Source: Candidatus Omnitrophota bacterium
Lineage (GTDB): Bacteria > Omnitrophota > Gorgyraeia > Gygaellales > Profunditerraquicolaceae
Assembly: GCA_035402765.1 (NCBI GenBank)
Contig: DAONDX010000009.1
Location: 10,350-74,349, forward strand
DNA: 64,000 bases
Reading direction: 5' to 3'
This document shows, one piece after another, positions 139-21,854 of the stretch. The notes beneath the pieces are model-generated. The model did not search any database. It saw only the letters and a list, made by a program, of their open reading frames with translations, and was not told the origin of the DNA. Position 1 is the first letter of the stretch, and each line of letters begins with the position of its first letter. The position numbers and the translations under genes were made by a program.

Positions 139-372
139 ATGCTGTTGAATGTTTCAATCTTAAACTTAAGTAAAGTCCTTTTTGAGGGGCAAGCCGGAAG
201 AGTTATTTTGCCCGGGGAAGAAGGTGTATTTGAAATACTCCCGTTCCATAAACGTATTATGAGTCGTTTGATTACGGGAGCGGTAATTGTGGATCAGCAA
301 AGTATTCCGATAAGAAGGGGAGTAGTTAAAGCGGATCAGAATACGGTAACGATTATTCTGGAAGAAAAATGA
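139..372 (+). CDS. atpC: F-type ATP synthase epsilon subunit, N-terminal beta-sandwich domain only (77 aa)
   Basis: The translation matches the epsilon N-domain pattern (VxxP...FxG...LPGxxGxFxILPxHxxxxxxLxxGxxxV...RGxV...VTIL). The C-terminal helical hairpin is absent. It overlaps the c-subunit start by 4 nt (ATGA). Confidence 0.65.
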   Translation: MLLNVSILNLSKVLFEGQAGRVILPGEEGVFEILPFHKRIMSRLITGAVIVDQQSIPIRRGVVKADQNTVTIILEEK

Positions 373-587
373 GTAAAAATATTGCTTTAGTGATAATTTT
401 TGCTTTATGTATATTAGGGCCCTGCGCGGTTTTTGCCGCGGGCAGTTACTCCAGCATTAATGCGCTGGGCCGTAATCCGTCGTCGGCGCCTAAGATCTTT
501 ACCGCGATGATTATTGGATTAGTTTTTGCGCAAAGTTTGGCGATTGTCGCCATGTTGATCGTATTCCAGTTGTTTGGCGCCTCTTAA
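369..587 (+). CDS. atpE: F-type ATP synthase c subunit (72 aa, two TM helices). The conserved ion-binding Glu/Asp is absent: Gln sits in the aligned position.
   Basis: Two hydrophobic helices are joined by a polar loop GRNPS, which matches the c-subunit loop ARQPE. Helix 2 (IIGLVFAQSLAIVAML) aligns to FIGVALVEALPIIGVV of a Bacillus c subunit. There is no D or E in either helix. Confidence 0.7.
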   Translation: MSKNIALVIIFALCILGPCAVFAAGSYSSINALGRNPSSAPKIFTAMIIGLVFAQSLAIVAMLIVFQLFGAS

Positions 588-608
588 TACTTAAAGGAGA
601 TTAAAAAG

Positions 609-1319
609 ATGTTGATGGCTTCGTTTATTATTTTTATTTTGCTGGTTTTTGTGGTATTGGTATTTATGTTAAATAAAATTATGACGCAAAATGTTACTTC
701 GGCTACCCAGCATATTGACGAGTTGAATCAGGATTACACTAAGAAAGACGAAGATATCAACCGCCGTTGGGAAGAAGTTAAAAGGCAGGCCGAGGATATT
801 GTCCGTAAGGCTCAAGAGGAAGGTGAAAAAACCAAGATCGAATTAATTAAAGGGGCTGAAGCCGAGAAAGAGCAAATTATAAAACAAGCCCGCGTAAAAA
901 GCGAAGAGATGGTGGCACAGGCGGAGAAATCTTGCCAGGCTTTGCTTTCGGAGATCGAGGCGCGGATTGCTAAAGAGGCGATGAATAAAGCGGTGGGTTT
1001 GATCCATGATGTCCTTCCGGATAAGTTCAAACGCAACGTGCATAATGAATGGGTAGACGGATTGATCGCTAACGGTTTCAATCAGCTTAATAATATCGGT
1101 ATTCCGGATAATGTTTCGGAGGTTTTGATCTCAGCCGCATTTCCTTTAACCGCTAATCAGCGGGAGGAATTGATCAAAAAGCTTTCCAGTGTTTTGAATC
1201 GTCAGATTACCTTAAAAGAAGAGGTTGATCCAAAATTAGTTGCCGGTTTAGTGATTACGATTGCCAGCCTGGTTTTTGACGGAACCCTGAAAAACAAAAT
1301 TATGGAGAAAGCCCGCTAA
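609..1319 (+). CDS. atpF: ATP synthase b subunit fused to a delta (OSCP) C-terminal domain
   Basis: An N-terminal TM helix is followed by a long charged coiled coil, as in a b subunit. The last ~90 aa (…VDPKLVAGLVITIASLVFDGTLKNKIMEKAR) match the conserved delta C-terminal domain. An RBS AAGGAGA lies upstream and the stop abuts the atpA ATG. Confidence 0.6.
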   Translation: MLMASFIIFILLVFVVLVFMLNKIMTQNVTSATQHIDELNQDYTKKDEDINRRWEEVKRQAEDIVRKAQEEGEKTKIELIKGAEAEKEQIIKQARVKSEEMVAQAEKSCQALLSEIEARIAKEAMNKAVGLIHDVLPDKFKRNVHNEWVDGLIANGFNQLNNIGIPDNVSEVLISAAFPLTANQREELIKKLSSVLNRQITLKEEVDPKLVAGLVITIASLVFDGTLKNKIMEKAR

Positions 1320-2804
1320 ATGTCAAGCGATATAAGATCTTCGGATCCCGGAACAGTTTTTGAGATTCGTGAAGTAGGTTTTATACAGTCTGTCCGTAAG
1401 TTCATTGTTGTGGCTAAGGGGATGCCTAGCTGTATTAACGGCCAGATCGTGGAATTTGCCAGCGGCATACTGGGTTTAGTGATGGGGTTTACCGAGGATA
1501 AAGTCCAAATCCTGGTGTTGGGTGATCCCGTCGGCATCCGCGCCGGCGATGAAGTTTATAATAAGGGAAAGTCCCTTACGCTTCCGGTCGGAGATGCTTT
1601 TGTCGGCAGGGTAGTGGATGCGCTTTGCCGGCCGCTGGATGGGCAAGGCCCGGTGGCAGCCCAGGGCCAGCTTCCGGCATTTATTGTCGCTCCCGGGGTT
1701 ATGGATCGACAACCGGTAAATCAAACTTTGGAATCCGGTACTTTGATTATTGACGCGATTATCCCCTTGGCCAAAGGTCAAAGGCAGCTTTTAATCGGCG
1801 ACCGGATCACCGGGAAAACCAGCGTCGCTTTAGATGCGATAATTAATCAGAAGGGTAAGAATGTCATTTGTATTTACTGCTGCATCGGCAAGCCTTATTC
1901 CAGCCTGGTTAAAGTTTTAAATGTCCTGCGTGAAAAAGAAGCCTTAGATTATGTGATTATAGTTTCCGGGGTAGCCAGCGTTTCAACCGGAGAACAGTAT
2001 TTGGCTCCTTATACTGCCTGTACTTTGGGTGAGTATTTTATGAGCCAGGGCAAAGATGTGCTTTTAGTTGCCGATGATCTAACTAAACATGCCTGGGTCT
2101 ATAGGCAAATTTCTCTTTTGTTGGAACGGGCACCCGGCCGGGAGGCATATCCCGGGGACATTTTTTATTTACACTCTCAGATGATGGAACGTGCCGGGCT
2201 CCTGAAAAAAGACCTCGGCGGCGGTTCAATGACCTTTTTGCCGATCGTGGAAATCCTGCAGGGAGATTTAACCGGATATATTCCCACCAATTTGATTTCC
2301 ATGACCGACGGACAACTTTATTTCTCTACCGGCCTTTTTAACAAAGGGGTAAAGCCGGCGATCGATTTTGGTTTATCGGTTTCCCGTATCGGTAATAAAG
2401 CTCAATGGCCGGCGGTTAAAGGCTTAAGCAAATCTTTACGTCTTGATTATCTGCAGTATAAAGAACTTTTGCAGATGACCCAATTGCGTACTTCCGGGCT
2501 TTCCAAAGAAGCCGAAGCGCGGTTGCGTCGAGGGGAGGCGATCAGCCAGCTGATTACCCAGGATAAAAATCGTCCGGTATCTGTTGAAGAGCAGATCATT
2601 TATTTATATTCGCTGAATCATGGTTTGTTGGATAGTTTATCTACCGCTCAGATCCGCCAGTTTCGTTTGAATATTTTAGCTTATGTTCAGCAGGTCAAGC
2701 CTGAATTCTGTTTAAAAATCCGGCAGACCAAAGAACTTAGCGAAGATCTCCGGGTGATGCTGGAAGAGGCGCTCACGGCATATTTAAGAGAAGAGGTTAA
2801 ATAA
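1320..2804 (+). CDS. atpA: F-type ATP synthase alpha subunit
   Basis: Walker A GDRITGKTS, CCIGKPYSS and overall alpha-subunit architecture are present in 494 aa. Confidence 0.95.
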   Translation: MSSDIRSSDPGTVFEIREVGFIQSVRKFIVVAKGMPSCINGQIVEFASGILGLVMGFTEDKVQILVLGDPVGIRAGDEVYNKGKSLTLPVGDAFVGRVVDALCRPLDGQGPVAAQGQLPAFIVAPGVMDRQPVNQTLESGTLIIDAIIPLAKGQRQLLIGDRITGKTSVALDAIINQKGKNVICIYCCIGKPYSSLVKVLNVLREKEALDYVIIVSGVASVSTGEQYLAPYTACTLGEYFMSQGKDVLLVADDLTKHAWVYRQISLLLERAPGREAYPGDIFYLHSQMMERAGLLKKDLGGGSMTFLPIVEILQGDLTGYIPTNLISMTDGQLYFSTGLFNKGVKPAIDFGLSVSRIGNKAQWPAVKGLSKSLRLDYLQYKELLQMTQLRTSGLSKEAEARLRRGEAISQLITQDKNRPVSVEEQIIYLYSLNHGLLDSLSTAQIRQFRLNILAYVQQVKPEFCLKIRQTKELSEDLRVMLEEALTAYLREEVK

Positions 2805-2808
2805 GCTT

Positions 2809-3669
2809 ATGCAGACCATGGCGGTCATTAAAAAAGATATGGAGTTTAACCAGGGGCTTTCTTCTTTAATTGAGGTGTTGAAGAATATCGCGGTCTCCCA
2901 ATACCGTTCTTTAGAGCATAGATTCGGCGGTTTTGATAAGTTTATGAGCGCTGTGGAAAGTTATTTTGAATTTATTGATTTTAAAGCTGTCCGGCATCCA
3001 TTCCTGGCTCCGACCAATAAAACTCAAGTGGTTGTGGTAGTTACCTCCGACGGCGGTCTTTTGGGCGGTTTAAATATGCAGGTAGTCTCCCGGGCTTTAG
3101 CGGAACTGGCGAGTAATCCCGGCCAATTAGTGGTGATCGGTGAGCGGGGTAAAATGTATGCGCGGGAAAGCGGAGTTCCCTTTGTAGCTTACCCTGGGAT
3201 CAACGACGATGACCGGTTGAACCAGGCTTTTCAGCTAAGGGATTATTTGTTCAGGAACGCCCTGAGGGGAAAGTTCGGATTATTGAAAGTAGTGTACCCT
3301 CACCCGGTATCTTTTACGGTTCAGCGGGTTGAGACAGTAACTTTTTTTCCTTTTTTACCGGAATTTTTAGCCGCTAAACCTCAGGGTCCCGAGAAACTTG
3401 CGATTTTGCAAAATGTGATCTTTGAATCAAAAATCAGCGATATTGTGGAGTATCTGGTTTATTTATGGATGGGCCAGCGGCTTTATGATATTTTTGGCTT
3501 AAGCCGCCTGTCAGAGTTTGCCGCCCGTTACGTCCATCTTGAAGACAGTCTGCGGCGGCTTAAAGAGATGGACGCAAAGCTAAAGCTGCAGTATTTCCGT
3601 GTCCGGCATGAAATTATCGATCAAAGCATGCGGGAATTGTTTAGCGCCAGGCAGTTGTTTAATGCTTAA
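2809..3669 (+). CDS. atpG: F-type ATP synthase gamma subunit
   Basis: At 286 aa it sits between alpha and beta, with the N- and C-terminal helices typical of gamma. Confidence 0.85.
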   Translation: MQTMAVIKKDMEFNQGLSSLIEVLKNIAVSQYRSLEHRFGGFDKFMSAVESYFEFIDFKAVRHPFLAPTNKTQVVVVVTSDGGLLGGLNMQVVSRALAELASNPGQLVVIGERGKMYARESGVPFVAYPGINDDDRLNQAFQLRDYLFRNALRGKFGLLKVVYPHPVSFTVQRVETVTFFPFLPEFLAAKPQGPEKLAILQNVIFESKISDIVEYLVYLWMGQRLYDIFGLSRLSEFAARYVHLEDSLRRLKEMDAKLKLQYFRVRHEIIDQSMRELFSARQLFNA

Positions 3670-3705
3670 TGACCAGATCTGAGATTTTTTATGGGAAGAT
3701 AAACT

Positions 3706-5103
3706 ATGAATAATAAAGCTAAAGGTAAGATTACCGCGGTGCAGGGCCCGGTGGTCGACGTAAAATTTAATTCGGCCGATGATGTGCCGAATGTTTACGC
3801 GATGTTACTTACCCATACTATCGAAGGCAGCGAAGTTTTTTTGGAGGTTGCCGAACATTTACCGGGTAATGTCGCCCGGTGTATTTCGATTAATTCTACG
3901 ACAAATATTCAACGTTATGCCGAAGCTATTTTTTACGGTTCTTCCATTCAAATTCCGGCCGGGGACGGGCTTTACGGTCGCTTGATTAATGTCGTAGGTC
4001 AGCCGATTGACCAGGGAGGGCCGGTTGAACATCAGGAAAAAAGCTCGATCCGTAAAACCGATATGGGCAGCCGGGTCCGGGTCAGTAAAAATAAGGATGA
4101 GCGCCGCAGTTACGAAGTTATGGAAACCGGGATCAAGATTATCGATTTGCTGGCTCCGCTGGTTAAAGGAAGCAAAACCGGTATTTTAGGAGGCGCCGGG
4201 TTAGGCAAAAGCGTGCTGACCCTGGAGATTATCCAGCATATCGTCAAGCGTTATCAGGGGTCTTGCGTTTTTGTCGGTATCGGAGAACGTATCCGCGAAG
4301 GGAACGAATTGTATTATGAATTAAAGAATCATGATGTTCTATCTAAAACAATGATGGTATTCGGCCAGATGAACGAGCCGCCGGGGGCGCGTTTTGCTGT
4401 GGCAATGACCGGGATCACGATGGCTGAAGCGGTGCAGAAAAAGAACCAGGATGTTTTGATGTTTTGTGATAATATTTTTCGTTTTGTCCAGGCCGGTAGC
4501 GAAATCTCAACCCTTCTGGGGCGGGTGCCTTCAGAAACCGGGTATCAGCCTACTTTGCTTTCTGAAGTTAGCGAATTTCATGAACGGATCCGTACGACTA
4601 AGGATGCCGGAGGGTCAATTACTTCTATCGAGGCCGTTTATGTCCCGGCTGATGATTTAACGGACCCTGCAGTTGTGGCGATTTTTAGTTTTTTGGATTC
4701 AGTATTAGTTTTGTCCCGCGAACGGATCCAGCTGGGTTTGTACCCGGCGATTGATCCGCTTTTATCCAGTTCTTCCAATCTGGATATCGATATCGTCGGA
4801 AAACGCCATTTTGAGGTTGCCCAAGGGGTAATCAGGATGTTCCAGCGTTACGAAGAATTGCGGCGCATTGTCCTGGTAGTCGGGATCGACGAACTTTCAT
4901 CCAGCGACCGGATTATCTATGAACGGGCCCGGAAAATGCAAAATTTTCTTACGCAACCGTTTTCCGTTGCGGAAGCTTATACCGGCAAAAAAGGGGTTTA
5001 TGTAACGATTGAACAAACTCTGGAAGGCTGTGAAAAGATTATGTCCGGCAAAATGGATAGCCAGCCGGAGCAGGGATTTTATTTGATCGGGGCTTTACCC
5101 TAA
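3706..5103 (+). CDS. atpD: F-type ATP synthase beta subunit
   Basis: P-loop GGAGLGKSVL, catalytic GIGERIREG and DELSSSD (the DELSEED equivalent) are present. A ~30-aa insertion follows the N-terminal barrel. Confidence 0.95.
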   Translation: MNNKAKGKITAVQGPVVDVKFNSADDVPNVYAMLLTHTIEGSEVFLEVAEHLPGNVARCISINSTTNIQRYAEAIFYGSSIQIPAGDGLYGRLINVVGQPIDQGGPVEHQEKSSIRKTDMGSRVRVSKNKDERRSYEVMETGIKIIDLLAPLVKGSKTGILGGAGLGKSVLTLEIIQHIVKRYQGSCVFVGIGERIREGNELYYELKNHDVLSKTMMVFGQMNEPPGARFAVAMTGITMAEAVQKKNQDVLMFCDNIFRFVQAGSEISTLLGRVPSETGYQPTLLSEVSEFHERIRTTKDAGGSITSIEAVYVPADDLTDPAVVAIFSFLDSVLVLSRERIQLGLYPAIDPLLSSSSNLDIDIVGKRHFEVAQGVIRMFQRYEELRRIVLVVGIDELSSSDRIIYERARKMQNFLTQPFSVAEAYTGKKGVYVTIEQTLEGCEKIMSGKMDSQPEQGFYLIGALP

Positions 5104-5156: not shown

Positions 5157-7316
5157 ATGCCTAAAAAAATTGATTTACAATTAGCGGAAATTTTAGTTGA
5201 AAAAAAACTGATCACCCGTGAAAATGTCGCAGAGCTTCTGCTGGAAGCTGACCGCCTAAAACAGGACCTGCGGCAGGTTTTAGTAAAACATAGTTTGTTC
5301 TCTGAACAAGCCGTCCTGGATTTATTAGCGGAAAAATTAAAACTTACCTGTGTTAATCTTAAGGAGTTATCAATTGACAGATTAATTATTAACAAGGTTC
5401 CTTTAAAAATAGCTTCTTATTATAAATTCATTCCGTTATTCTTAAAAGGCAGGACTTTAACCATCGCTGTAGCTTATCCCCTGGATATTATGACGCTGGA
5501 TGAAATCAGGACTCAGTTAGGTTTAGACATTGAAACGGCTTTGGCTTGTGCCGCCGATGTGGCGGATGATTTAAAAAAATATTATGGTTTAGCCGCTGAT
5601 ACTTTGGAAAAAATAAATTCACAGCAGGTTTCAACTTCGGCTAATGACCAGCAGAGCAGAAACCAGGAGGGGGTAGAGGATATTGAGAAACAGGCTACCG
5701 ATGCCTCGGTAATTAAATTAGTTAATCAAATAATTTTAGAGGCCTGGCGGAAACGGGCCACGGATATTCATATTGAGCCTTACCGGCAAGGCCTGGCGCT
5801 GCGTTATCGGATTGATGGCCTGCTTTATGATGCCAATATTCCCGGTGAAATAAAAAATTTTATGAATGCGATTATTTCCCGGATTAAAATCATGTCTAAC
5901 CTGAACATTGTTGAACGCCGGCTTCCCCAGGATGGCCGGGCAATTGTCAGAGTTCAGGATCAGGTTTTGGATTTGCGGATTTCGACTATTCCCACTCCTT
6001 TCGGCGAAAGTTTGGTTATCAGGATTCTGCCTACCCAGATGCTTTTTAGCTTGGAGAAATTAGGTTTATCCAAGAATGAGCTGCAGATTTTCGAAGGTTT
6101 GGTACAGAAACCGCACGGTATAATTTTTGTTACCGGTCCGACGGGGAGCGGTAAGACCACTACGCTTTACGCCTGTTTGAGCAGGATTAACACTAAGGAC
6201 CGCAAGATCATCACGATCGAGGATCCTATCGAGTATGAGATGAGCGGGATTACTCAGATCCAGGTCCAGCCGGAGATCGGTTTGGATTTTGCCCGCGGGC
6301 TGCGCAGTATCTTAAGGCATGATCCGGACGTGATCATGGTGGGAGAAGTCAGGGATTTTGAAACAGCCGAAACCGCTATCCGGGTGGCTTTGACCGGACA
6401 TTTAGTATTTTCTTCCGTGCACACTAATGATGCGGCTAGCGGCATTGCCCGCTTACAGGATATCGGAGTTGAGCCGTATTTAATTGCTTCCAGTGTTGAG
6501 GCTTTTATTGCGCAACGGTTAATCCGGGTTATCTGTCCGGAATGCCGGTTTGAAGATAAGCAGGCGCCTTTAGAGTTAAGAGAATTAATCGCCCGTGATC
6601 TGGGAATAAAATTAGAAGAAGTTAAAATCTTCCGGGGTAAAGGATGCCCTCATTGTAATTCTACGGGTTATTTTGGCCGCACAGCAATCTATGAAATTTT
6701 AATTGTGGATGAACTGACCAAAGAAATGATTCTCAAGAAAGCTTCTTCCGACCAGATCAAGCGGTTGGCTGTATCTAAAGGGATGCGTACTTTAAGGCAG
6801 GACGGTTGGAGAAAAACCATTGCCGGGGTCACTACTTTTGAGGAGGTGATCCGGGTAACTTCCGCCGAAGAGGAGGTTAGTATTAAAAAAGATACCTCAA
6901 CCGCTGAAAGCAGCTATCCTTATCAAGAGGCCAATCCTGAGCCGGGGACATTAAGCCGGCGGGTTTACCGGCGGCTGGATAAACAGGTGAATGTGAGCTA
7001 TAAGGTCTTTGAAGTAGAGAATGAATTAATTAAACGCAAAGATGCTGTTGAAGAGGCAACGGCCAGTAAAAATATTTCTGCCGGAGGCCTGCTCTTTGTA
7101 GCGAAGGATAAATTAATTATCGGTTCAATACTTGAGCTAAAGATCCAATTACCTAATAGCGATGAGCTGATTGAATGTCTAGCCAGAGTGGTCAGAGTGG
7201 AAGAGCTGATTGAACAAAGAGAATATGATGTTGCCGTCTGTTTCCTGGATTTAACCGGCGCCGAACGGATAAGATTAGATAAGTTTGTAGGGCAGAAACC
7301 GGAGGGCAGGTTATAA
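5157..7316 (+). CDS. pilB: Type II secretion / type IV pilus assembly ATPase (GspE/PilB family) with a C-terminal PilZ domain
   Basis: It has a GspE N-terminal domain, Walker A GPTGSGKTTT, and the tetracysteine CPEC...CPHC motif. The C-terminal ~135 aa carry PilZ motifs RRVYRRLD (RxxxR) and NISAGG (D/NxSxGG). Confidence 0.9.
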   Translation: MPKKIDLQLAEILVEKKLITRENVAELLLEADRLKQDLRQVLVKHSLFSEQAVLDLLAEKLKLTCVNLKELSIDRLIINKVPLKIASYYKFIPLFLKGRTLTIAVAYPLDIMTLDEIRTQLGLDIETALACAADVADDLKKYYGLAADTLEKINSQQVSTSANDQQSRNQEGVEDIEKQATDASVIKLVNQIILEAWRKRATDIHIEPYRQGLALRYRIDGLLYDANIPGEIKNFMNAIISRIKIMSNLNIVERRLPQDGRAIVRVQDQVLDLRISTIPTPFGESLVIRILPTQMLFSLEKLGLSKNELQIFEGLVQKPHGIIFVTGPTGSGKTTTLYACLSRINTKDRKIITIEDPIEYEMSGITQIQVQPEIGLDFARGLRSILRHDPDVIMVGEVRDFETAETAIRVALTGHLVFSSVHTNDAASGIARLQDIGVEPYLIASSVEAFIAQRLIRVICPECRFEDKQAPLELRELIARDLGIKLEEVKIFRGKGCPHCNSTGYFGRTAIYEILIVDELTKEMILKKASSDQIKRLAVSKGMRTLRQDGWRKTIAGVTTFEEVIRVTSAEEEVSIKKDTSTAESSYPYQEANPEPGTLSRRVYRRLDKQVNVSYKVFEVENELIKRKDAVEEATASKNISAGGLLFVAKDKLIIGSILELKIQLPNSDELIECLARVVRVEELIEQREYDVAVCFLDLTGAERIRLDKFVGQKPEGRL

Positions 7317-7318: not shown

Positions 7319-8539
7319 ATGGCTAATTATAATTATCGCGCTAAAAAAGGACTGCAAGAGATAATTAACGGTACGATCGAAGCGGTTTCTGAAAAAGAGG
7401 CAATTGAAAAAATCAGTGCGCTGGGTTATCTTCCTATCTCTCTGGAAGAAGCTAAAAATCAGCAGAAATTTTCTCCTGCTCCTGTAGCGTATAAAACGCA
7501 CGGCAGGATCAAGGGCAGGCAAATTACTACTTTTTCCCGGCAGCTTTCCAGCCTTTTAAAATCCGGAGTCCCCATACTGTCGGCGATAAACATTATTAGA
7601 GAACAGTCGGAAAACGTGAATTTAAAAGCCGTCCTTTATGATATTTACAATGTAATTAAGAACGGGGGAACATTTTCTTCGGCTTTGGAGGTTTATCCGA
7701 AATATTTTCCCGTTTTATATATTGCCATGGTGCGTACGGGGGAAAATAGCGGAGCTTTAGCCGCTTCGCTTTTGAGGATCGCCGATTACCGGGCTAAACA
7801 AGAAGAACTGATTTCACGTTTCCGGATGGCGATGGCCTATCCCATATTGATGGCCCTGGTGGGGATAGCTACGGTAGTATTTATGCTTACTTATGTAATG
7901 CCCAGATTAATGGGGATATTCTCTAGTCTAGGGCAGAATTTACCGTTGCCTACCCAAATTCTGTTAGCCCTGAGCAAGGGGTTGCGCCAATGGTGGCCTT
8001 GGATGATTTTAATTATCTTGGCCGCAGTTGTTTTGATCAAGCAGCAGTTAAATACTAAAATGGGCAGGTTAACCTGGAGCGTTTGTAAACTGCGTATTCC
8101 TATATTCGGAAATTTCGCGCTCAAAGCCGATCTGGCTTGTTTTAGCCGGACTTTGGAATTACTGCTTAAAAGCGGCCTGCCGATTTTAAGCGCTTTACAG
8201 ATATCCGTGCAGGTATTGAATAATGAAGTGATCAAAGAAAAATTGATGAAGAGTTACCGGGATCTAGAGCAGGGTGGATCTTTGGGACGGAGTTTGAAAG
8301 ATTCTAAATTGCTTCCCTTGTTTATGGTGAATTTGATCAGCATCGGAGAAGAATCCGGGAATCTGGCTTCTTCTTTGGGGGAAGTCGCCGATTCCTATGA
8401 ACGCGATACCGATGAAATGATCAAGGTGATGAGCAGTTTACTTGAGCCGCTAATGATTTTAGCAATGGGTTTAATCGTCGGTTTTATTGTGATCGCGATG
8501 CTTTTGCCGATCTTCGAAATTAACCTGATGTCTAAATAA
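7319..8539 (+). CDS. pilC: Type II secretion / type IV pilus inner-membrane platform protein (GspF/PilC family)
   Basis: It is 406 aa with duplicated GspF domains and three TM segments. It lies immediately downstream of the ATPase. Confidence 0.9.
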   Translation: MANYNYRAKKGLQEIINGTIEAVSEKEAIEKISALGYLPISLEEAKNQQKFSPAPVAYKTHGRIKGRQITTFSRQLSSLLKSGVPILSAINIIREQSENVNLKAVLYDIYNVIKNGGTFSSALEVYPKYFPVLYIAMVRTGENSGALAASLLRIADYRAKQEELISRFRMAMAYPILMALVGIATVVFMLTYVMPRLMGIFSSLGQNLPLPTQILLALSKGLRQWWPWMILIILAAVVLIKQQLNTKMGRLTWSVCKLRIPIFGNFALKADLACFSRTLELLLKSGLPILSALQISVQVLNNEVIKEKLMKSYRDLEQGGSLGRSLKDSKLLPLFMVNLISIGEESGNLASSLGEVADSYERDTDEMIKVMSSLLEPLMILAMGLIVGFIVIAMLLPIFEINLMSK

Positions 8540-8543: not shown

Positions 8544-9404
8544 ATGTATAATAGAAAATTAAAATTATTTTTATTTATTTTTTTAGGAATTTTCAGCTTA
8601 ACTGCCGGTTATGCCGATGATTGGAAGGAGAAAAAAAGCGAACATTTTATCGTGTATTTCGAGCAGGATGATGCTTTTGCCCAGTCAGCATTAGACGGCG
8701 CGGAAAAAAATTACCGCAATATCGCTAATGATCTAGGATATGCGCGTTATTCCGAATTTTGGACTTGGGACAAAAGAGTAAAGATCTATATCTATCCGGA
8801 TCATGACGCTTTTTTAAGAGCTACCGGCCAGCCAAGTTGGTCAGAAGGCATGGCGGATTATACCAATAAACAAATAATCAGTTATGTCTGGGGTAAAGGT
8901 TTTATCGAATCTCTCCTTCCGCATGAAATAGCGCATTTGGTTTTCAGGGATTTTGTGGGTTTTAAAGGCGAAATCCCCCTGTGGCTGGATGAAGGGGTGG
9001 CCCAATGGGAGGAGGAAGCTAAAAGAAAAGAAATCAAGAATTTGATCCAGCGTTATTTTCAACAGGATAATTTGTTGTTGGTTAGCGATATCATGAAATT
9101 GAATATTTCGAATTTAAAAGATAAAACCGGGGTGTTGATCAGGGCGACCAAGACCAAAGACGGCAAAGATGGGGTGTTGTTTTTAAGCTCAAACAATCTA
9201 ATCGAAATTTATTATATGGAATCGGTTTCTCTGATCGGCTACTTGATCGAAAAGTTCGGTTCCGCTGCTTTTTCCGGATTTTGCCGTGAATTGCGCGACG
9301 GTAAAAGCGTAGAGGATGCTTTGAAAATATCCTATCCTTTATACATACACAATATTCAGGAATTTGAGGATGGATGGAGAGAATATCTGAAGGCAGGCAA
9401 TTAA
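8544..9404 (+). CDS. Secreted peptidase-MA-like protein (HExxH) of unknown function
   Basis: A signal peptide is present and HEIAHLV is followed by a downstream LDEG, consistent with a gluzincin-like fold. It is embedded between pilC and the pseudopilin genes. Confidence 0.45.
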   Translation: MYNRKLKLFLFIFLGIFSLTAGYADDWKEKKSEHFIVYFEQDDAFAQSALDGAEKNYRNIANDLGYARYSEFWTWDKRVKIYIYPDHDAFLRATGQPSWSEGMADYTNKQIISYVWGKGFIESLLPHEIAHLVFRDFVGFKGEIPLWLDEGVAQWEEEAKRKEIKNLIQRYFQQDNLLLVSDIMKLNISNLKDKTGVLIRATKTKDGKDGVLFLSSNNLIEIYYMESVSLIGYLIEKFGSAAFSGFCRELRDGKSVEDALKISYPLYIHNIQEFEDGWREYLKAGN

Positions 9405-9428: not shown

Positions 9429-9863
9429 ATGAACAAATTGTATAAGTTTCAAGCGGCAGTGAAAAATCCCGGGGGGTTTACCCTGATCGAATTGATGCTG
9501 GTGGTGGTAATTATCGGAGCGTTAGTGGCGATGGTTACGCCCAGACTTGCCGGTAGAGGGGAACAGGCCAGAGCGGCAGCCGCCAACGCAGATATCAATG
9601 CTAATATTGCTACGGGCCTGAAGCTTTATGAATTGGACAACGGTAATTTCCCGAGTACTTCAGAGGGGTTGAATGCTTTATTGGTTAAACCTGATTCCGC
9701 CCGGAATTGGAACGGCCCATATTTAGAAAAAAAACCCGTTGATCCCTGGGGTAAAGAGTATGAATATAAATCTCCCGGAGAGCATCGTAAAAGCGATTAC
9801 GATCTCTATTCTTTAGGCAAAGACGGAACGGAAAGTGCCGATGATGTCAATAACTGGGAATGA
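9429..9863 (+). CDS. gspG: Major pseudopilin, GspG-like, with a prepilin cleavage/methylation motif
   Basis: GGFTLIELMLVVVIIG is a class III signal peptide. The body matches GspG (NADINANIATGLKLYELDNGNFPS...DPWGKEYEY...DYDLYSLGKDG). Confidence 0.85.
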   Translation: MNKLYKFQAAVKNPGGFTLIELMLVVVIIGALVAMVTPRLAGRGEQARAAAANADINANIATGLKLYELDNGNFPSTSEGLNALLVKPDSARNWNGPYLEKKPVDPWGKEYEYKSPGEHRKSDYDLYSLGKDGTESADDVNNWE

Positions 9864-9882
9864 GGGGTCTTGCAATTTAAAG

Positions 9883-10293
9883 ATGCCGGCCGGTAAAATA
9901 TCCAATCAAAGATCTAAAAAAAAAGGTTTTACTCTTCTGGAAGTAATGATCGCTACTGCCGTTCTGGCGTTGGGGGCGACATTAATTTACCAGTCTTTTT
10001 TTATCGCCGTTAATTCTTTTAATTACTACTCCACGCTTTTGAAAGTATCTCCCTGGATGAATGAAACGATCTGGCAGGCTCAGAATCGCCTCCGACATCT
10101 GGGTTCGGGCGCGACGCTGTCTTCCGGCGGGCTGCTGAATATTAATAATAAAGATCTAAATTGGAGTTTATCCTATAATTCCCTGGATCAAACGGATAGT
10201 TTTTACCGGGTTAATTTAACGGTGGTTTGGCCGCAGGGAACCCGGCAGGTGAAATTATCAAGGTCTGCATATGCGATTTATACGAAAAAATAA
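9883..10293 (+). CDS. Minor pseudopilin (prepilin-type N-terminal domain)
   Basis: KKGFTLLEVMIATAVLALG is a prepilin motif. The start is placed at the ATG at 9883; the ORF-track start at 9835 would overlap gspG. Confidence 0.6.
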   Translation: MPAGKISNQRSKKKGFTLLEVMIATAVLALGATLIYQSFFIAVNSFNYYSTLLKVSPWMNETIWQAQNRLRHLGSGATLSSGGLLNINNKDLNWSLSYNSLDQTDSFYRVNLTVVWPQGTRQVKLSRSAYAIYTKK

Positions 10294-10855
10294 ATTAGGT
10301 TTTAGCCTGGTGGAGTTGTTGGTGGTTACCGGGATGCTCGGGGTAATTTCTTTAGCCATATTTGCGACTTTTAACAATGGGTTTAAGATCTGGAAAAGGA
10401 TCAATCAGCCATTGGCGGATGAGGATTTGGGATTTCTCTTCGATAAACTGGCAGTGGATTTGAACAATTGCCTAAAGTCTAACAGCATTTCTTTTTCCGG
10501 TAGTGAAAATAATTTAAGTGTTCCTACCCTGGTGGATAGCCCGGATCTGGCGGCCAGGACCGTGGGGGCGGTTGTTTATTCCTACGATCAGCCAGCCGGT
10601 TTATTGATCCGGCAGCCTAATGATTTCAGCCAGCTTTATCGCCACCATGAGGATAGCGGAGTTGTCCTGCTTAAAAATATCAGGTCCTTAAAATTCGAGT
10701 ATTATTATTATGATAAACTAAAGTCAGAGTATATTTGGAAAGAAGAATGGTCACAGGCGGGCTTGCCGCTAGCGGTAAGGGTGAGTTTAAATTTAAGGGA
10801 TGCATCTGAAAATGATAAAATTATCCGGACGTTTAATATTCCTATCGGAGGCTAA
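10271..10855 (+). CDS. Minor pseudopilin (prepilin-type N-terminal domain)
   Basis: The prepilin motif KLGFSLVELLVVTGMLGVISLAIFA is present. Confidence 0.6.
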   Translation: MRFIRKNKLGFSLVELLVVTGMLGVISLAIFATFNNGFKIWKRINQPLADEDLGFLFDKLAVDLNNCLKSNSISFSGSENNLSVPTLVDSPDLAARTVGAVVYSYDQPAGLLIRQPNDFSQLYRHHEDSGVVLLKNIRSLKFEYYYYDKLKSEYIWKEEWSQAGLPLAVRVSLNLRDASENDKIIRTFNIPIGG

Positions 10856-11849
10856 AAGCCGAGGCAGCATCCTGATCGTTGCTTTGTGGTCGCTTTGTCT
10901 ACTGTCGGCATTTGCGGTTATTTTGAATTATCAGGTGCGGCAGGAGCTGGCTTTAGCCATTCGCCTTGATCAGCGGGACCGGCTGCGCCTGATTGCCGAA
11001 GCCGGAGTCGATCAGGCAATTATGGAATTAAAAAGCAACCCGGAAAAAATGTATTATTGCTTAGCCGATAGCTGGAGCAATAATCCGGCCGCTTTTAAAA
11101 ATATTCAAGTGGGCAGCGGAGAGTTTAGCCTGACCCATAGCTATCCGGAAAAAAAATCCGGTCTGATGCAGACCGGTTACGGCTGTGTCGATGAAGAAAG
11201 TAAAATTAATATTAATAAGGCTGAGTCCGGAGTATTGGAACGCCTTTTTAGAATTGTTTTAGCTTGTGATGAAATCCAGGCCCAGGAGTTGGCAGCTAGT
11301 ATACTGGATTGGAGAGATGAGGACAGCGCGCTCTCTATTCCGACGGGCAGCGCGGAAGATGATTATTATACTAACCTGCCTTTTCCTTATGCCGCGAAAA
11401 ATTCAGCATTTGAGGTATTGGAAGAATTACTTTTAGTTAAAGGATTTAGTGATAATGTTTTTGAAAAAATAAAAGACTATGTTACTATCTATGGAGAAGG
11501 CAGAGTCAATATTAACACCGCAAATGAAGTTGTGCTTTTTGCTTTAGGGCTGGATGAGAAGATCGTGGATAGGATCGCAGCTTATCGCGCCGGAGAAGAT
11601 GAATTGATCGGCACGCTGGATGATAATGTTTTCGCAGCCGCTTCGGACATTGTGCCGACCTTGAGTCAAATTTATCAGTTCAGTCCTTCCGAGCTGGAGC
11701 GGTTTAATCTGGTGGCTAATTTGTTTTTAGGAGTTAGCTCCAGCAATTTTTTAATTAAGGCTACGGCTAGTTTGACGGAAAAGAATTCACAAACCGTCTT
11801 TTGTGTAGTCAAGCGTGACGGTAAGATTCTTTACTGGCGGGAAGATTAA
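10800..11849 (+). CDS. gspK: GspK-like minor pseudopilin
   Basis: An N-terminal RGSILIVALWSL matches the GspK signature (GxALLxVLW). The C-terminal ININTANEVVLFALGLDEKIVDRIAAYR is the helix-hairpin-helix region typical of GspK. The true start is probably an internal Met near 10812. Confidence 0.65.
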   Translation: MHLKMIKLSGRLIFLSEAKSRGSILIVALWSLCLLSAFAVILNYQVRQELALAIRLDQRDRLRLIAEAGVDQAIMELKSNPEKMYYCLADSWSNNPAAFKNIQVGSGEFSLTHSYPEKKSGLMQTGYGCVDEESKININKAESGVLERLFRIVLACDEIQAQELAASILDWRDEDSALSIPTGSAEDDYYTNLPFPYAAKNSAFEVLEELLLVKGFSDNVFEKIKDYVTIYGEGRVNINTANEVVLFALGLDEKIVDRIAAYRAGEDELIGTLDDNVFAAASDIVPTLSQIYQFSPSELERFNLVANLFLGVSSSNFLIKATASLTEKNSQTVFCVVKRDGKILYWRED

Positions 11850-11853: not shown

Positions 11854-13332
11854 ATGTTTAAATTTAATATGGATAATTTAAAACTTTTGTCCGGATTAAC
11901 TAACCAGGAATTGGTGGGGGTTAATTTTAACGGGAACAGCTTAAAAATCTCCCATATTAAAATTTCGCCCAATCGTAAAGAAGTAGTTAATCTGCTGAAT
12001 TTAGACATTACCGCTCTTAACGATATAGATATCGCTAAGGCGATCCAGGTTGCCATCGGCGCACTCCGGGGCAGAAAAGTTGAGATCGTGGATGTGGTTC
12101 CGACACAGCTGGTGATCACGAAAAATATCGAAATTCCCTCCATTGACAAGAAAGAGATTAAGGAAATTCTTAATCTGCAGGCCGGCCGGCATACCCCCTA
12201 TTCAAGAGAGGAAATCATTGTTGATTATGTCGAGATCGGCACCTATAAACATAGCTATACTAAGGTGCTGTTGGTGATTGTTGCCCGCTCCGTGGTCAAA
12301 CGGCATTATGAAATATTGGACCGGGCGGGTTTTAAGTTAAAAAAGGCTCTTTTGGCTTCTGAAGGGATGGCACTGGCAATTTCTAAAACCTTAAGGCTAG
12401 AGACAGATAATGCGCCGGTTAATATACTGCACGTTGATGAAAATTTTACGGATTTTAGTATTGTCCTTAAGAATAAGGTTATATTTATTCGTTCTATTCC
12501 TATCGGGACTTCTCAATTAAAGAATGAAAAAGAAGTTTATCAGATTAAATTTGTAGATGAACTGAAAAGGTCTCTGGAGGCTTATTTAGGCGGAGACATT
12601 GAAATAAGTCCGCATATGTTAATTCTAACCGGCGCGGAAGAAGAACTCAAAGAGATTGAAAGCCTGCTGAATAACACGCTGCATTTACCGGTAAAAACTA
12701 TGCCGTATGCTAATATCTTTGGTATTTCAGAATTGGCCCGCGGAGCAATGGCTAAATTCCGGCAGCTGTCTTTTTTTGATGTGATCGCGCCGATTTTAAA
12801 TTGCGGAGAGATGAAAATTGACCTTATCCCGGAAGAAGCCAGGGTGCGCCGGTCCATTGAAGAGAGAGGCAAGGATTTGATTAAAACCGGGATTTTTATT
12901 TTATCCATTTTGATTGTCACTTTTTTTATTCTGACCAGCAAAATTTATTTTAAGGGCGCGCAACTGAATAAATTGGAAAGCAGGTATGCGACAATTAATC
13001 AGGAAGCGAAGAAATTAGAAAAAGATCTTTTAAAGGTCGGTTTGGTAAAAAATTACCTGACCAACCGCGGGTATTCTTTAGAGATACTTACGGAATTGCA
13101 TTCTTTGGTTTCTGAAGATATAGAGTTAAGCGAAATCCGCTATGATGGGGATAAATTTTCGGTAAAAGGCACGGCCAATGCCATGTCTTCAGTTTTTTCT
13201 TTTGTTGATCTTATGGAAAAATCAAAATATTTCAAAGAAGTTAAAACCCGCTATACTACTAAGCGCAAAGATGGTTTAAGAGACTTGACGGATTTTGAAA
13301 TTGTGGCGCAGACCGAAAGGCCGCAAGAATGA
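11854..13332 (+). CDS. PilM-like actin-fold assembly protein fused to a PilN-like TM and periplasmic segment (GspL-equivalent)
   Basis: A ~340-aa cytoplasmic PilM-like domain is followed by a single TM (IFILSILIVTFFIL) and a ~130-aa periplasmic coiled-coil tail. Confidence 0.65.
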   Translation: MFKFNMDNLKLLSGLTNQELVGVNFNGNSLKISHIKISPNRKEVVNLLNLDITALNDIDIAKAIQVAIGALRGRKVEIVDVVPTQLVITKNIEIPSIDKKEIKEILNLQAGRHTPYSREEIIVDYVEIGTYKHSYTKVLLVIVARSVVKRHYEILDRAGFKLKKALLASEGMALAISKTLRLETDNAPVNILHVDENFTDFSIVLKNKVIFIRSIPIGTSQLKNEKEVYQIKFVDELKRSLEAYLGGDIEISPHMLILTGAEEELKEIESLLNNTLHLPVKTMPYANIFGISELARGAMAKFRQLSFFDVIAPILNCGEMKIDLIPEEARVRRSIEERGKDLIKTGIFILSILIVTFFILTSKIYFKGAQLNKLESRYATINQEAKKLEKDLLKVGLVKNYLTNRGYSLEILTELHSLVSEDIELSEIRYDGDKFSVKGTANAMSSVFSFVDLMEKSKYFKEVKTRYTTKRKDGLRDLTDFEIVAQTERPQE

Positions 13333-13898
13333 TAAAACTGCCGAATCTTAAGGCGCTCCAGGTGTTCCTGGGGCGTTTATCAAAAAAAGATAAAATAATT
13401 TTTTATATTGCCGTTTTTGTTGTTTCTTTGATGGTCTTGGACCGGGCGATCATCTCGCCGGTATTTAATAAGATCAGGTCCTTGAATAAAGAAGTTAAAG
13501 ATGAGCAGGCGACGATTAAGAAAAATTTACGTATCCTGGCCCAGAAGGACAGGATATTATCGGAAGGTGCCAAATACAGTTCTTTTCTGGGCGATGCCCA
13601 ACTTAGCGATGATGAACAGATAACTTTGGTTTTAAAGGAAATTGAAAGTTTAGCCAGCAAGAGTTCGGTATATCTGGTGGATATGAAACCTTCCGGGACA
13701 AAAGAATCAGGTTCTTCAAAAAGGATCATGATCAACTTGAATTGTGAAGCCCAGATGGAGCAGCTGGTTGATTTTATGTATAATTTAGAAAATTCGAATA
13801 TTTTGCTTTCTATCGAGAAATATCAACTGACTCCTAAAACTAAAGAATCCAGTGTAGCAAAATGCAGTATTTCGGTTTACAAGGTAGTTGCGTTATAA
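13329..13898 (+). CDS. GspM/PilO-like bitopic assembly protein
   Basis: It has an N-terminal TM, a coiled coil and a C-terminal alpha/beta domain. It lies directly after the GspL-like gene in a translationally coupled operon. Confidence 0.5.
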   Translation: MIKLPNLKALQVFLGRLSKKDKIIFYIAVFVVSLMVLDRAIISPVFNKIRSLNKEVKDEQATIKKNLRILAQKDRILSEGAKYSSFLGDAQLSDDEQITLVLKEIESLASKSSVYLVDMKPSGTKESGSSKRIMINLNCEAQMEQLVDFMYNLENSNILLSIEKYQLTPKTKESSVAKCSISVYKVVAL

Positions 13899-14067
13899 TG
13901 TTTAAGTAAATAAAAAATTAATTTTTAACCGCGGTTTTGGATGATGAGCCGGTTTGGCAGAACGGCCGGGGCGAAGCGCGTAGATTCATATCGCGCGATC
14001 CGCTGGATAGTTATCTCCGGCGCTGTTAAGTACTGCGCCGGTATCCGCTAGGTAGCGGAGAAAGGGG

Positions 14068-14544
14068 ATGGAAATGAAAAAAACATTTTTTTTAGTTTTA
14101 GCTTTAGTGTTGGCCTGGAATTTTTCCGCGCAGGCTTTGGAGACCACCTTGATTGATACCCGCAATGAGATTCTAAAAACATCGGAGGAGCTAAAAACAT
14201 ATTTTACTACCACCCGGGATCCGGTTTTATTGAACAGCCTGTGGGATTCTTCAATTATGGCGGTTTCGCAGCTGGATGCCTATTTTTCTATGTTGGGGAT
14301 ATTTAATACGATAAAAAAAGAAAATTTAGACCAAGCTGCGTTTACTTACCTGATTAAATGGTTGAACCAATTAAAAGACTCCACTGCCTCAAATATAAAA
14401 AGCTTGAGTTCCATCAAGAAGACTACTGATGCCCGCAGTAAAGCTTACGTATTAAAATTAAAGGATATATTTAGTAACCTGGAATCGCGTATTGATAAAG
14501 AACTCCAAAGCGTTACGAAGTATTCGGAATCAATTAAGCAATAA
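14068..14544 (+). CDS. Small secreted hypothetical protein
   Basis: A signal peptide MEMKKTFFLVLALVLAWNFSAQA is followed by a helical, low-complexity body. An RBS GGAGAAAGGGG lies upstream. Confidence 0.4.
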   Translation: MEMKKTFFLVLALVLAWNFSAQALETTLIDTRNEILKTSEELKTYFTTTRDPVLLNSLWDSSIMAVSQLDAYFSMLGIFNTIKKENLDQAAFTYLIKWLNQLKDSTASNIKSLSSIKKTTDARSKAYVLKLKDIFSNLESRIDKELQSVTKYSESIKQ

Positions 14545-14698
14545 TCGGCTGCAGGTTTTAATGTTTTAGCTTGGTAAATGGCTCCAGACAGCTTAAGCTG
14601 ACAGAGCGCCATCGATCAAGTGGCCGGCTTTTTTAGTTATAGCTATCGAAGATTTACCGGGCTTAAAGGGTAGAAGGCCTTAATTAAGGAGAGAAACG

Positions 14699-15541
14699 AT
14701 GCGTAAATTCATCTTGCTATTTCAATGTCAAGACCGCAAAGGGATTGTGGCCAAAATTTCTGATTTTATTCTCAAGGTAGGCGGTAATATTATTACCGCT
14801 GATCAATACAGTACAGACCCGGAAGGCGGGTATTTTTTTATACGGATAGAGTTTGTTTTGGACAGCCAACAGGCTAACTTGCAAAGCCTGGCTTCAGCTT
14901 TTAGCCCGCTAGCCGATGAGTTCGGTGCTAGTTGGAATATCTATGACCGTTCTGAAGTCCTGCGTATGGGTATTTTTGTGTCTGAACCGGATCATTGTTT
15001 AGCGGATGTTTTATATTTATGGAACGCGGGTGAATTAAATGTAAAAATCCCGTTTGTTTTAAGTAATTGCGAAAAACACCGCAAGTTAGTAACTGGATAC
15101 AACCTGCCTTTTTATTATGTGCCGGCCAATAAAGACAATCGCCGCGAGGAAGAGCTATTGGCTTATGCTTCTGATGCGACAGATTTTTTAGTGCTGGCCC
15201 GTTATATGCTGGTGCTTTCGCCGGATTTCCTGCGCAAATATAATAAAGATATAATTAATATTCACCATGGGTTTCTGCCTTCTTTTAAAGGAGTGGATCC
15301 TTACGCCCAGGCACTTAAAAAAGGAGTTAAGGTGATCGGTTCTACCGTCCATTTTGTGAATAATCAACTTGATGAAGGTCCGATCATTGCCCAAGAAGTT
15401 GAGTATATATCACACAAGGATAATCTTGTTGATCTGGTCCGTAAAGGAAAGCAGACGGAAAGAAAGGCCTTGGTGCATGCTTTATCCAGCTACATCGATT
15501 ACCGGATAATTAAACACGAAAATAAAACTATAGTTTTTTAG
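14699..15541 (+). CDS. purU: Formyltetrahydrofolate deformylase
   Basis: An N-terminal ACT domain is followed by a formyltransferase domain. Confidence 0.85.
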   Translation: MRKFILLFQCQDRKGIVAKISDFILKVGGNIITADQYSTDPEGGYFFIRIEFVLDSQQANLQSLASAFSPLADEFGASWNIYDRSEVLRMGIFVSEPDHCLADVLYLWNAGELNVKIPFVLSNCEKHRKLVTGYNLPFYYVPANKDNRREEELLAYASDATDFLVLARYMLVLSPDFLRKYNKDIINIHHGFLPSFKGVDPYAQALKKGVKVIGSTVHFVNNQLDEGPIIAQEVEYISHKDNLVDLVRKGKQTERKALVHALSSYIDYRIIKHENKTIVF

Positions 15542-15569
15542 GCGTTTACAAATATAATCAGGCTGGGAT

Positions 15570-16406
15570 TCAGATGTTTTTTAATTTTTGAATGACCTCT
15601 TGGATGCTGGATTCCGGAGTAGAGGCCCCCGCAGTAATCCCCACGTTTTTGGCATTTTTTAGCCAGGTCTTCTTAATTTCTTGCGCGGAGTTTACCCAAT
15701 AACTATTTTTGTTCAGAGATTTTGAGATTTCGTAAATTCTTTTGGTATTGGCGCTGGTTTTTGAGCCGATGATAATCATCACAGAGTTTTTTTTCGGCAT
15801 AATTTTGACTTCATTCTGCTTGATTCTGGTAGGATTACAGATGGTGTTATGGAAGTCGATTTTGGGAATATATTTACGCAAGATTTCCAGGATCGCCAGG
15901 GCATTATCCAGGTTTTGAGTGGACTGAATAATTATTCCGGCTTTTTTAATCTTTTTGATTTTAGCTAAGGGAATGCTTTGCAGCTTATCGATTACCAGGG
16001 CTTTAGTTTTAAGCTGCCCGATGATCCCCCGGACTTCATCATGCTGTTTGTCCCCGATTATAATTATTTGATCGCCATTATTTTCTAAACTGCGGGCGAT
16101 TCCGTGGATTTCTTTTACCATCGGGCAGGTTGCATCAATAACCTGCCAGCCCAGGTTTTTAGCTTGCTGTAAAGTATGCTTTGATGAGCCGTGCGCGCGG
16201 ATGAGCAATGTCTTGCCTGCTCCCGAAGTAAGACGGCGGATTTTTTTAATTCCGGCATTGCGGATTGATTCTACCACCTTTTCATTGTGCACAATATCTC
16301 CGAGCATGAATACTAATTTCCTGGTTTTAGCGGTTTCTAAAGCTTTAGTGATCGCTTTTCTTACTCCAAAACAGAAACCCGCGGATTTAGCTAAGTTAAT
16401 TTTCAT
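15570..16406 (-). CDS. ispH: 4-hydroxy-3-methylbut-2-enyl diphosphate reductase
   Basis: FCFGVRKAI, DATCPMV and CNPT motifs mark the three Cys ligands of LytB. Confidence 0.9.
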   Translation of the reverse strand: MKINLAKSAGFCFGVRKAITKALETAKTRKLVFMLGDIVHNEKVVESIRNAGIKKIRRLTSGAGKTLLIRAHGSSKHTLQQAKNLGWQVIDATCPMVKEIHGIARSLENNGDQIIIIGDKQHDEVRGIIGQLKTKALVIDKLQSIPLAKIKKIKKAGIIIQSTQNLDNALAILEILRKYIPKIDFHNTICNPTRIKQNEVKIMPKKNSVMIIIGSKTSANTKRIYEISKSLNKNSYWVNSAQEIKKTWLKNAKNVGITAGASTPESSIQEVIQKLKNI

Positions 16407-16459
16407 CGGTTTTTTAAGCTATATTGTTAATTGATAATTTTCGTTGGCAAGCTGCGGAA

Positions 16460-17500: not shown

Positions 17501-17555
17501 AATTTATGTTAACATATAAAGAGTAATTATGCAATTATTTTGGCGGGGTTAGAAA

Positions 17556-18686: not shown

Positions 18687-19075
18687 ATTGGGGAATTTTG
18701 GTCTTGAGGCTGGGGATTGGCGTTATGTTTTCAGCGCATGGCTTGCAAAAAGTCTTTGGTTTTTTTGGCGGCCCGGGGATCAATGGTTTTTCGCAAATGC
18801 TTTCCAGTTTAGGGTTTGTCCCGGCTGCGCCTTGGGCTTATCTTGCCGCTTATACCGAATTATTCGGAGGTATATTTTTGATTTTGGGGTTGTTTACCCG
18901 CTCTAGCGCTGCCTTGCTTTTTGTACTTATTGCTACTGCTGCCGTGAAAGTACATCTTGGCAAAGGGTTCTTTTTATCTAACGGCGGTTTTGAATATACT
19001 TTTGTTATCGCAACTGCCTGTATCGCGCTTATGCTATGCGGTTCCGGAAAATTCAGCATTTTTAAACTGATGTAA
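18680..19075 (+). CDS. DoxX-family membrane protein
   Basis: It has four TM helices and a DoxX-like sequence. The start is the ATG at 18680 after RBS AAGGAGGCGG; the 18563 upstream extension overlaps the previous gene and is rejected. Confidence 0.65.
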   Translation: MLDWGILVLRLGIGVMFSAHGLQKVFGFFGGPGINGFSQMLSSLGFVPAAPWAYLAAYTELFGGIFLILGLFTRSSAALLFVLIATAAVKVHLGKGFFLSNGGFEYTFVIATACIALMLCGSGKFSIFKLM

Positions 19076-19173
19076 GCTGCTGGATAAAAATATTCAGTTG
19101 CTTGAAGAAAATAAAGTGCTATATTCTTGGTGTTTATCTTTTTTAAGGTTGAATCTCAACAAGCGATGAAAAT

Positions 19174-21827: not shown

Positions 21828-21854
21828 TAAGTAAAAGAAAGTTAACAAAAGATG

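Follow-up and report, generated by a model that had tools for sequence, protein, structure and literature searches.

Cyclic di-GMP (c-di-GMP) is known to control the motors of pili and of type II secretion in two ways, through an N-terminal MshEN site or through separate PilZ/FimX partners. For motors of the MshE/PilB type this control is established (PMC5013675, PMC11656802). Here we describe a gspE/pilB-type motor gene of a Candidatus Omnitrophota bacterium, the product of which ends in a PilZ domain. The gene occupies nucleotides (nt) 5157..7316 of the window, by which we mean the whole 64-kb stretch of DNA that was analysed (assembly GCA_035402765.1, contig DAONDX010000009.1, positions 10,350 to 74,349). 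This and all other window coordinates below refer to the + strand. The gene is an uninterrupted open reading frame (ORF) of 719 residues and a stop codon, in which Pfam recognises T2SSE, MshEN and PilZ. A preliminary description, drawn from the sequence alone, had proposed a covalent fusion of ATPase and PilZ, and the single frame, open over all 719 residues, bears this out. A protein encoded in a Candidatus Omnitrophota metagenome-assembled genome is 100% identical to it.

Motors of the MshE/PilB/PA14_29490 type, among them V. cholerae MshE, M. xanthus PilB, C. perfringens PilB2 and T. thermophilus PilF, share the ATPase family and the N1 fold with the fusion protein. They sense c-di-GMP on the motor polypeptide itself, with control of filament assembly as the expected output, and the fusion protein would resemble them in both respects. 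The receptor differs. In the fusion it would be a C-terminal PilZ barrel with the motifs RxxxR and D/NxSxxG, whereas theirs consists of paired N-terminal helical motifs of 24 residues.

In the PilB-PilZ-FimX system of Xanthomonas and Pseudomonas, a PilZ fold is likewise tied to a PilB-type motor, and c-di-GMP provides an input to pilus assembly. The PilZ protein is separate there and lacks the motifs for c-di-GMP, which is sensed by FimX through its EAL domain. In contrast, the PilZ of the fusion has retained both motifs and is attached in cis to the C-terminus. This domain is no orthologue of PA2960/XAC1133, its profile matching the Xanthomonas PilZ structure 3dsg at an insignificant E = 0.85.

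A third comparison is with enzymes such as the cellulose synthase BcsA, which carries a C-terminal PilZ in cis, and with YcgR and MotI, PilZ proteins that act on motors. In all of them, as in the fusion, a canonical PilZ domain follows or adjoins the output module and has its RxxxR on the linker between domains (Foldseek fold matches 4p00, 9fnn, 5y6g and 5vx6). The fusion differs in its output module, a hexameric secretion/pilus ATPase in place of a glycosyltransferase or a flagellar stator or rotor.

The locus type itself has been described. Seymour et al. 2023 report that an F-type ATPase adjoins a type IVa pilus (T4aP) cluster, as called by TXSScan, in every Omnitrophota class, and they propose that the locus serves attachment or motility on host cells (PMC10066038). 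The fusion gene lies in a locus of the same type, with F-type ATPase genes immediately upstream. The term di-GMP is absent from that paper, and its passages on pilus, secretion and ATPase leave a PilZ on the motor unmentioned. The fusion would bring a regulatory input to this locus.

The ATPase part of the fusion protein is complete, as the preliminary description had stated for a GspE/PilB-type enzyme with N1 domain, Walker A and tetracysteine site. The N1 region (residues 1-146, nt 5157..5594) is formed by a four-helix bundle at residues 4-61 and an alpha/beta subdomain at residues 62-146, according to Pfam and the AlphaFold model. The MshEN/T2SSE_N family PF05157 matches residues 62-146 with 51.8 bits. 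The T2SSE core follows at residues 179-566, nt 5691..6854 (PF00437, 434 bits). The Walker A sequence GPTGSGKTTT (residues 327-336, nt 6135-6164) and the tetracysteine site (Cys460, Cys463, Cys497 and Cys500) are invariant among 118 homologues, and because of this invariance the ATPase looks catalytically intact.

The protein scores 594.8 with TIGR02533, the equivalog model for GspE in type II secretion systems (T2SS), against a cut-off of 630.25, and 563.7 with TIGR02538, the equivalog model for T4aP PilB, against a cut-off of 675.65. It can be classified only as GspE/PilB-type, as neither equivalog. The nearest solved structures to the ATPase are Geobacter and Myxococcus PilB, then Vibrio GspE. 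Since both equivalog cut-offs are missed and the closest structures are PilB and then GspE, we name the machine a T2SS/T4aP-like type IV filament.

The tail behind the ATPase is a canonical PilZ domain, far beyond chance. When the whole protein is scanned, Pfam PF07238, which has a gathering cut-off of 22.5, matches residues 632-711 with 40.2 bits. A scan of the last 135 residues alone, suggested by the preliminary description, raises the score to 44.3 bits (E = 2.4e-11), and the family also exceeds its cut-off in five distant homologues. Both signature motifs named in that description are present. RRVYRRLD spans residues 601-608 (nt 6957-6980), with RxxxR itself from R602 to R606 (nt 6960-6974), and NISAGG spans N639 to G644 (residues 639-644, nt 7071-7088). 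A profile of the tail, built from 64 sequences for comparison with the sequences of the PDB, matches the c-di-GMP-binding PilZ protein MotI/YpfA of B. subtilis (5vx6) with E = 7e-8 and both motifs in register. The profile was required for this, as the best PDB match of the tail as a single query is insignificant (E = 0.45).

The AlphaFold model of the tail (residues 595-719) has a predicted local distance difference test score (pLDDT) of 84.9 and a predicted template modelling score (pTM) of 0.76. It shows a six-stranded barrel followed by a C-terminal helix at tail residues 107-118, which is the canonical PilZ layout (10.1101/814665). When this model was compared with the PDB by Foldseek, the top 44 matches were all PilZ domains, mostly in complex with c-di-GMP. 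They include MotI, Alg44, BcsA, YcgR, MrkH, MapZ, PA0012, PlzA and VCA0042, and the template modelling scores (TM-scores) against the PilZ domains of MotI, Alg44, BcsA and YcgR are about 0.6-0.7. The C-terminal extension is a PilZ domain and not a non-PilZ appendage of GspE. The extent given for it in the preliminary description, the last ~135 residues, has to be narrowed. The PilZ domain is real, but its fold covers only about residues 602-713 (nt 6960..7295), as Pfam, the profile match to MotI, AlphaFold and Foldseek indicate, and residues 569-600 (nt 6861..6956) are a flexible, acidic linker with abundant Glu, Ser, Ala and Pro and a pLDDT below 50 in the full-length model. Across the family the linker measures 23-44 residues, with a median of 32. 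Its mean column identity of 0.44 is the lowest in the protein, compared with 0.69 for the PilZ domain and 0.88 for the ATPase core.

The preliminary description had called for a survey of how often such fusions occur, and the survey places the fusion throughout the Omnitrophota. All 120 of the nearest protein clusters, down to 64% identity, carry PF00437 together with PF07238, and PF05157 is present as well except in one cluster, which is truncated. The tail also served as query in an exhaustive HMMER search of 1.84 billion representatives at 50% identity, which gave 598 matches at E ≤ 0.001. Five of these are full-length distant fusions at 46-51% identity, one of them named Omnitrophota. The remaining relatives are free PilZ, GGDEF-PilZ, STAS-PilZ, CBS-PilZ and PilZ-Hsp70 proteins. 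Short proteins among the top matches might be taken for free PilZ proteins; they are mostly C-terminal fragments of the fusion at contig ends. A protein of 3205 residues with 10 matched stretches (P0241) proved to be a false lead, a ubiquitin-hydrolase repeat protein.

GTDB was scanned with one genome per species, using family-specific patterns taken from a family alignment of 14 sequences. The scan returned 98 stretches encoding a relative, and the counts given here rest on the 80 of them listed as loci. Walker A and PilZ stand in one open frame in 70 of the 80. Eight loci lie at contig ends, six with ATPase sequence upstream and two with the linker and PilZ only. Another has a closed ORF of 716 residues that aligns over its full length at 62% identity, its Walker A unmatched by the pattern, and the last encodes an unrelated PilZ protein. 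Of the 80 listed loci, at least 70 and probably 78-79 thus have the fusion.

In sixteen of the listed loci the label names another group (Planctomycetales/Planctomycetia, Deltaproteobacteria or Patescibacteria) or reads no more than "bacterium". Spread beyond the phylum was considered for them and rejected. They show the same synteny, atpD - gspE-PilZ - gspF - peptidase - gspG, and their identities are interleaved with those of the loci labelled Omnitrophota, for which reasons we read these submitter labels as loosely assigned and the loci as probably Omnitrophota. The scan patterns (NISAGGLLF, CFLD...) are specific to this fusion family, and independent ATPase-PilZ fusions of other phyla lie outside their reach; restriction of the fusion to the Omnitrophota is therefore not established.

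The residues expected to contact the ligand are nearly invariant in this family. Among the 118 full-length homologues R602 is kept in all, R606 and L607 in 117 each, N/D639 in 117, S641 in 116 and G644 again in all. The spacing between RxxxR and (D/N)xSxGG is 33 residues in 115 of them, which lies within the 20-35 residues expected of a canonical PilZ domain. In the loci of the GTDB scan RxxxR is kept in 70/70, and the strict motif pair in 62/70. Such a pattern indicates strong purifying selection on the ligand-contacting residues across the phylum. A Lys or Arg stands just before RxxxR in 108 of the 118 homologues and in 52 of 62 scan loci. Work on PP4397 and on VCA0042-L135R reportedly links a basic residue at this position to the binding of c-di-GMP as an intercalated dimer; the structures of both PP4397 and VCA0042 are among the Foldseek matches of the tail. 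Besides the ligand motifs, a face of the barrel, ECLARVVR...AVCFLD, is strongly conserved. Two cysteines of the barrel that lie outside the general PilZ signature are also kept, C674 (nt 7176-7178) in 115 and C695 (nt 7239-7241) in 112 of the 118.

The opposite is seen at the N-terminus. The secondary structure of the AlphaFold model, four helices and then the alpha/beta subdomain, gives it an MshEN fold. The c-di-GMP consensus of MshEN comprises two tandem 24-residue motifs, RLGxx(L/V/I)(L/V/I)xxG(L/V/I)(L/V/I)xxxxLxxxLxxQ, for which a relaxed form has also been given (Wang et al., PMC5013675). Even one copy of the relaxed motif is matched by 0 of 120 homologues, and in the scan loci a single copy occurs in 1/70 and two copies in 0/70. 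The key positions in the window protein read Q8/A10/K17/A31 and D37/R39/S46/K60, and the NCBIfam model of the MshEN c-di-GMP motif, NF053729, reaches 20.7 bits where its cut-off is 38. The N-terminal site is degenerate in essentially all members. Because its motifs are degenerate, the PilZ domain looks like a replacement for the usual N-terminal c-di-GMP site rather than an addition to MshEN.

These features lead us to propose that the fusion protein is probably the motor ATPase of an Omnitrophota type IV filament machine, T2SS/T4aP-like, with the C-terminal PilZ on its tether of about 32 residues as the c-di-GMP receptor. As c-di-GMP rises, it would bind between RxxxR at the end of the linker and the barrel strand of (D/N)xSxGG, probably as an intercalated dimer, since a Lys or Arg usually precedes RxxxR. 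Binding would order the linker. The barrel would then be repositioned with respect to the hexameric ATPase, the N1 domain or the PilM/GspL-GspF platform, and this shift would switch filament assembly. The described systems offer analogies for such steps: in BcsA the cis PilZ gates the enzyme, in MotI and YcgR the liganded PilZ engages the motor, and in MshE and PilB c-di-GMP promotes extension. If the fusion behaves like MshE and PilB, high c-di-GMP would activate extension, which seems somewhat more likely than inhibition. Other c-di-GMP components are reported for Omnitrophota, namely GGDEF domains and small pilZ genes (10.1101/2023.11.21.568195).

Some relatives have signalling genes added beside the fusion gene, and we count these in favour of a c-di-GMP switch. 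In one locus type (L086/L087, 6001-6369 and flanks) the fusion gene is separated from gspF by genes for a PAS histidine kinase, a response regulator and a free PilZ paralogue with 45% identity to the tail, and a partial MshEN-domain ORF lies at the upstream edge. In another locus (L085) a stand-alone MshEN protein of 155 residues is encoded directly upstream of the fusion gene, while gspF is followed by two-component genes; its added genes lie at 9534-10001 and 13383-22011. The motifs of the stand-alone MshEN protein, QLGEILISRGII...Q and FLGAILLKKRYI...Q, resemble the c-di-GMP consensus more closely than the motifs at the N-terminus of the ATPase do.

Several observations weigh against the motor being switched by its PilZ domain. 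The full-length AlphaFold model (pLDDT 67.6, pTM 0.43) is too uncertain to place the docking of the PilZ domain. A few divergent members have GISAGG or NIGAGG as the second motif, or long insertions between the motifs. GGDEF, EAL and HD-GYP domains are absent among the scanned ORFs of the window. Finally, c-di-GMP binding left the in vitro ATPase rates of some PilB proteins unchanged, so the output is perhaps other than simple catalytic activation (PMC11656802).

The liganded PilZ could instead be a module for recruitment or localisation and not an allosteric switch, docking the motor onto a partner or sequestering it as a clutch. PilM/GspL, the platform protein, the neighbouring F-type ATPase or a FimX-like protein could be such a partner. 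Many PilZ proteins act through ligand-dependent binding of a partner, and the closest structural matches of the tail include MotI, YcgR and MapZ. In Xanthomonas, PilZ and FimX localise PilB (PMC8389850, PMC11656802). The long flexible linker would let the PilZ domain reach such partners, and the barrel face conserved beyond the ligand motifs is consistent with one. However, with the PilZ domain fused in cis to the ATPase, an intramolecular effect is the simpler reading. The two explanations also overlap, differing only in the target of the liganded PilZ, and we regard recruitment as plausible but clearly less likely.

More doubtful still, to the point of being very improbable, is a structural or chaperone domain blind to c-di-GMP, which would stabilise the PilB N-terminus in the manner of PA2960/XAC1133-type proteins, here in cis. 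Stand-alone PilZ proteins do bind and solubilise the N1 domain of PilB without binding c-di-GMP (PMC11656802, PMC8389850), and interacting partners commonly end up fused in evolution. But the non-binding PilZ proteins are those without RxxxR and D/NxSxxG (10.1101/814665), whereas both are nearly invariant here throughout the phylum, and it is this retention of both c-di-GMP motifs that makes a ligand-independent role unlikely. The tail profile points the same way, with its significant match to MotI (E = 7e-8) as opposed to that with 3dsg (E = 0.85). A frameshift, misassembly or gene-calling error joining gspE to a downstream pilZ might be suspected in a window from a metagenome-assembled genome, the more so as one related locus has a separate pilZ gene directly after the ATPase gene, but such an artefact is effectively excluded, because the same single ORF recurs at 70 or more of the 80 listed loci, from independent genomes, and in 120 clusters, across many studies and assemblers, and the locus with the free pilZ gene still has a PilZ fused to its ATPase.

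The fusion gene stands within a conserved gene order. Upstream, at 139..5103, Pfam and small ORFs identify the genes of an F-type ATPase in the unusual order epsilon, c, b/delta, alpha, gamma, beta. The gap between atpD and the fusion gene is 53 nt, and no terminator-like hairpin was found between 5103 and 5157. Downstream, Pfam identifies the platform protein gene gspF/pilC (7319..8539, T2SSF in two repeats), a Peptidase_MA_2 family gene between gspF and gspG (8544..9404), a GspG-type major pseudopilin (9429-9863, T2SSG), an N_methyl protein (9835-10293), a GspJ-like protein (10271-10855, T2SSJ) and GspK (10800-11849, T2SSK_1st). A GspL-like PilM-PilN fusion of 492 residues (11854-13332, PilM_2 and PilN), which is kept in distant relatives, and a GspM-like protein (13329-13898, T2SSM_b) complete the series. 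Directly after the latter comes an ORF of 158 residues without a Pfam match (14068-14544), which may belong to the operon because a gene of similar size is found in the same place in a relative (L084:16791-17264).

Among 83 related loci gspF directly follows the fusion gene in 79, and the beta-subunit gene directly precedes it in all 64 that have a beta-subunit match. The Peptidase_MA_2 gene holds the same position in 57 of the 83, and the role of its product could be that of substrate, processing enzyme or accessory component of the machine. The gene order is unchanged even in fusion members at 46-47% identity. Secretin (GspD/PilQ), prepilin peptidase, GspC and PilT were absent among the scanned ORFs of the window, which comprise all but a few smaller ones, and the genes for them may lie elsewhere in the genome. 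An outer membrane is indicated by the LptF/G and MlaDE genes in the window.

The c-subunit of the F-type ATPase (369-587) has the GRNP loop and is without Asp or Glu in either transmembrane helix. The position of the ion-binding Glu reads FAQSLAIV in the window, and the Gln is common to a relative at 85% identity, while two distant relatives keep the Glu (VFVEAISII); the counterparts compared are L084:2980-3198, L001:6075-6287 and L002:6719-6934. The c-ring of the window lineage may be without the usual ion translocation, which would fit the idea of a "non-respiratory" F-ATPase put forward in PMC10066038.

At its upstream edge the window begins with the 3' end of a gene (1-123). The C-terminal peptide encoded there, AGVLFFSWNRQSRMIKDELL..., has its match at the end of a close relative's protein, which measures at least 1,803 residues. 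Proteins of at least 953, at least 1,345 and at least 3,298 residues are found at the same place in other relatives, the large stretches of the upstream gene being L084:1-2750, L085:1-4441 and L002:1-3490. It appears that a gene for a very large membrane-anchored protein precedes the ATPase/pilus locus. Giant genes of Omnitrophota are treated in 10.1101/2023.11.21.568195, for comparison.

Two further ORFs of the window deserve mention. One of 390 residues (19174-20346) has no Pfam match. The other (53749-55164) shows the unusual pairing of an N-terminal Maf domain with a C-terminal Peptidase_M48. Maf is a family of nucleotide pyrophosphatases. This ORF may instead be two adjacent genes read together from an upstream TTG start.

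A GspE/PilB-PilZ fusion is undescribed in the literature that we searched, including surveys of PilZ proteins (10.1101/814665), the paper on MshEN (PMC5013675) and a 2024 review of PilB (PMC11656802), and likewise in genomic papers on Omnitrophota (10.1101/2023.11.21.568195, PMC10066038). It has been undiscussed rather than hidden, as automated annotations show its domains. Both components and logic are known, since c-di-GMP regulates motors of the PilB/MshE/GspE type and PilZ is fused to many output domains; the parts are familiar and the fusion overturns nothing. What sets it apart is the wiring, which is fixed throughout a phylum and pairs a motif-intact C-terminal PilZ in cis on the motor with an MshEN site that is degenerate. 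Beside the N-terminal MshEN site and the separate PilZ/FimX partners, it would be a third and very direct way of connecting c-di-GMP to such a motor.

The fusion is the rule across a mostly uncultured phylum, the members of which are thought to be predators or parasites of other microbes. It offers a simple and testable handle on how the main surface machine of Omnitrophota is turned on, a natural model, in a single chain, for the communication of PilZ with PilB-type hexamers, and a sequence marker for the conserved F-ATPase/pilus locus. A further possibility, which we put forward tentatively, is that a receptor swap took place at the base of the Omnitrophota, the MshEN site being lost and PilZ substituted for it, and that the PilZ domain is the master switch of a host-contact apparatus made of the F-type ATPase and the type IV filament. 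If so, this composite apparatus would be used to attach to or attack host cells, and c-di-GMP would gate predatory or symbiotic contact directly at the motor in these ultra-small, host-dependent bacteria.

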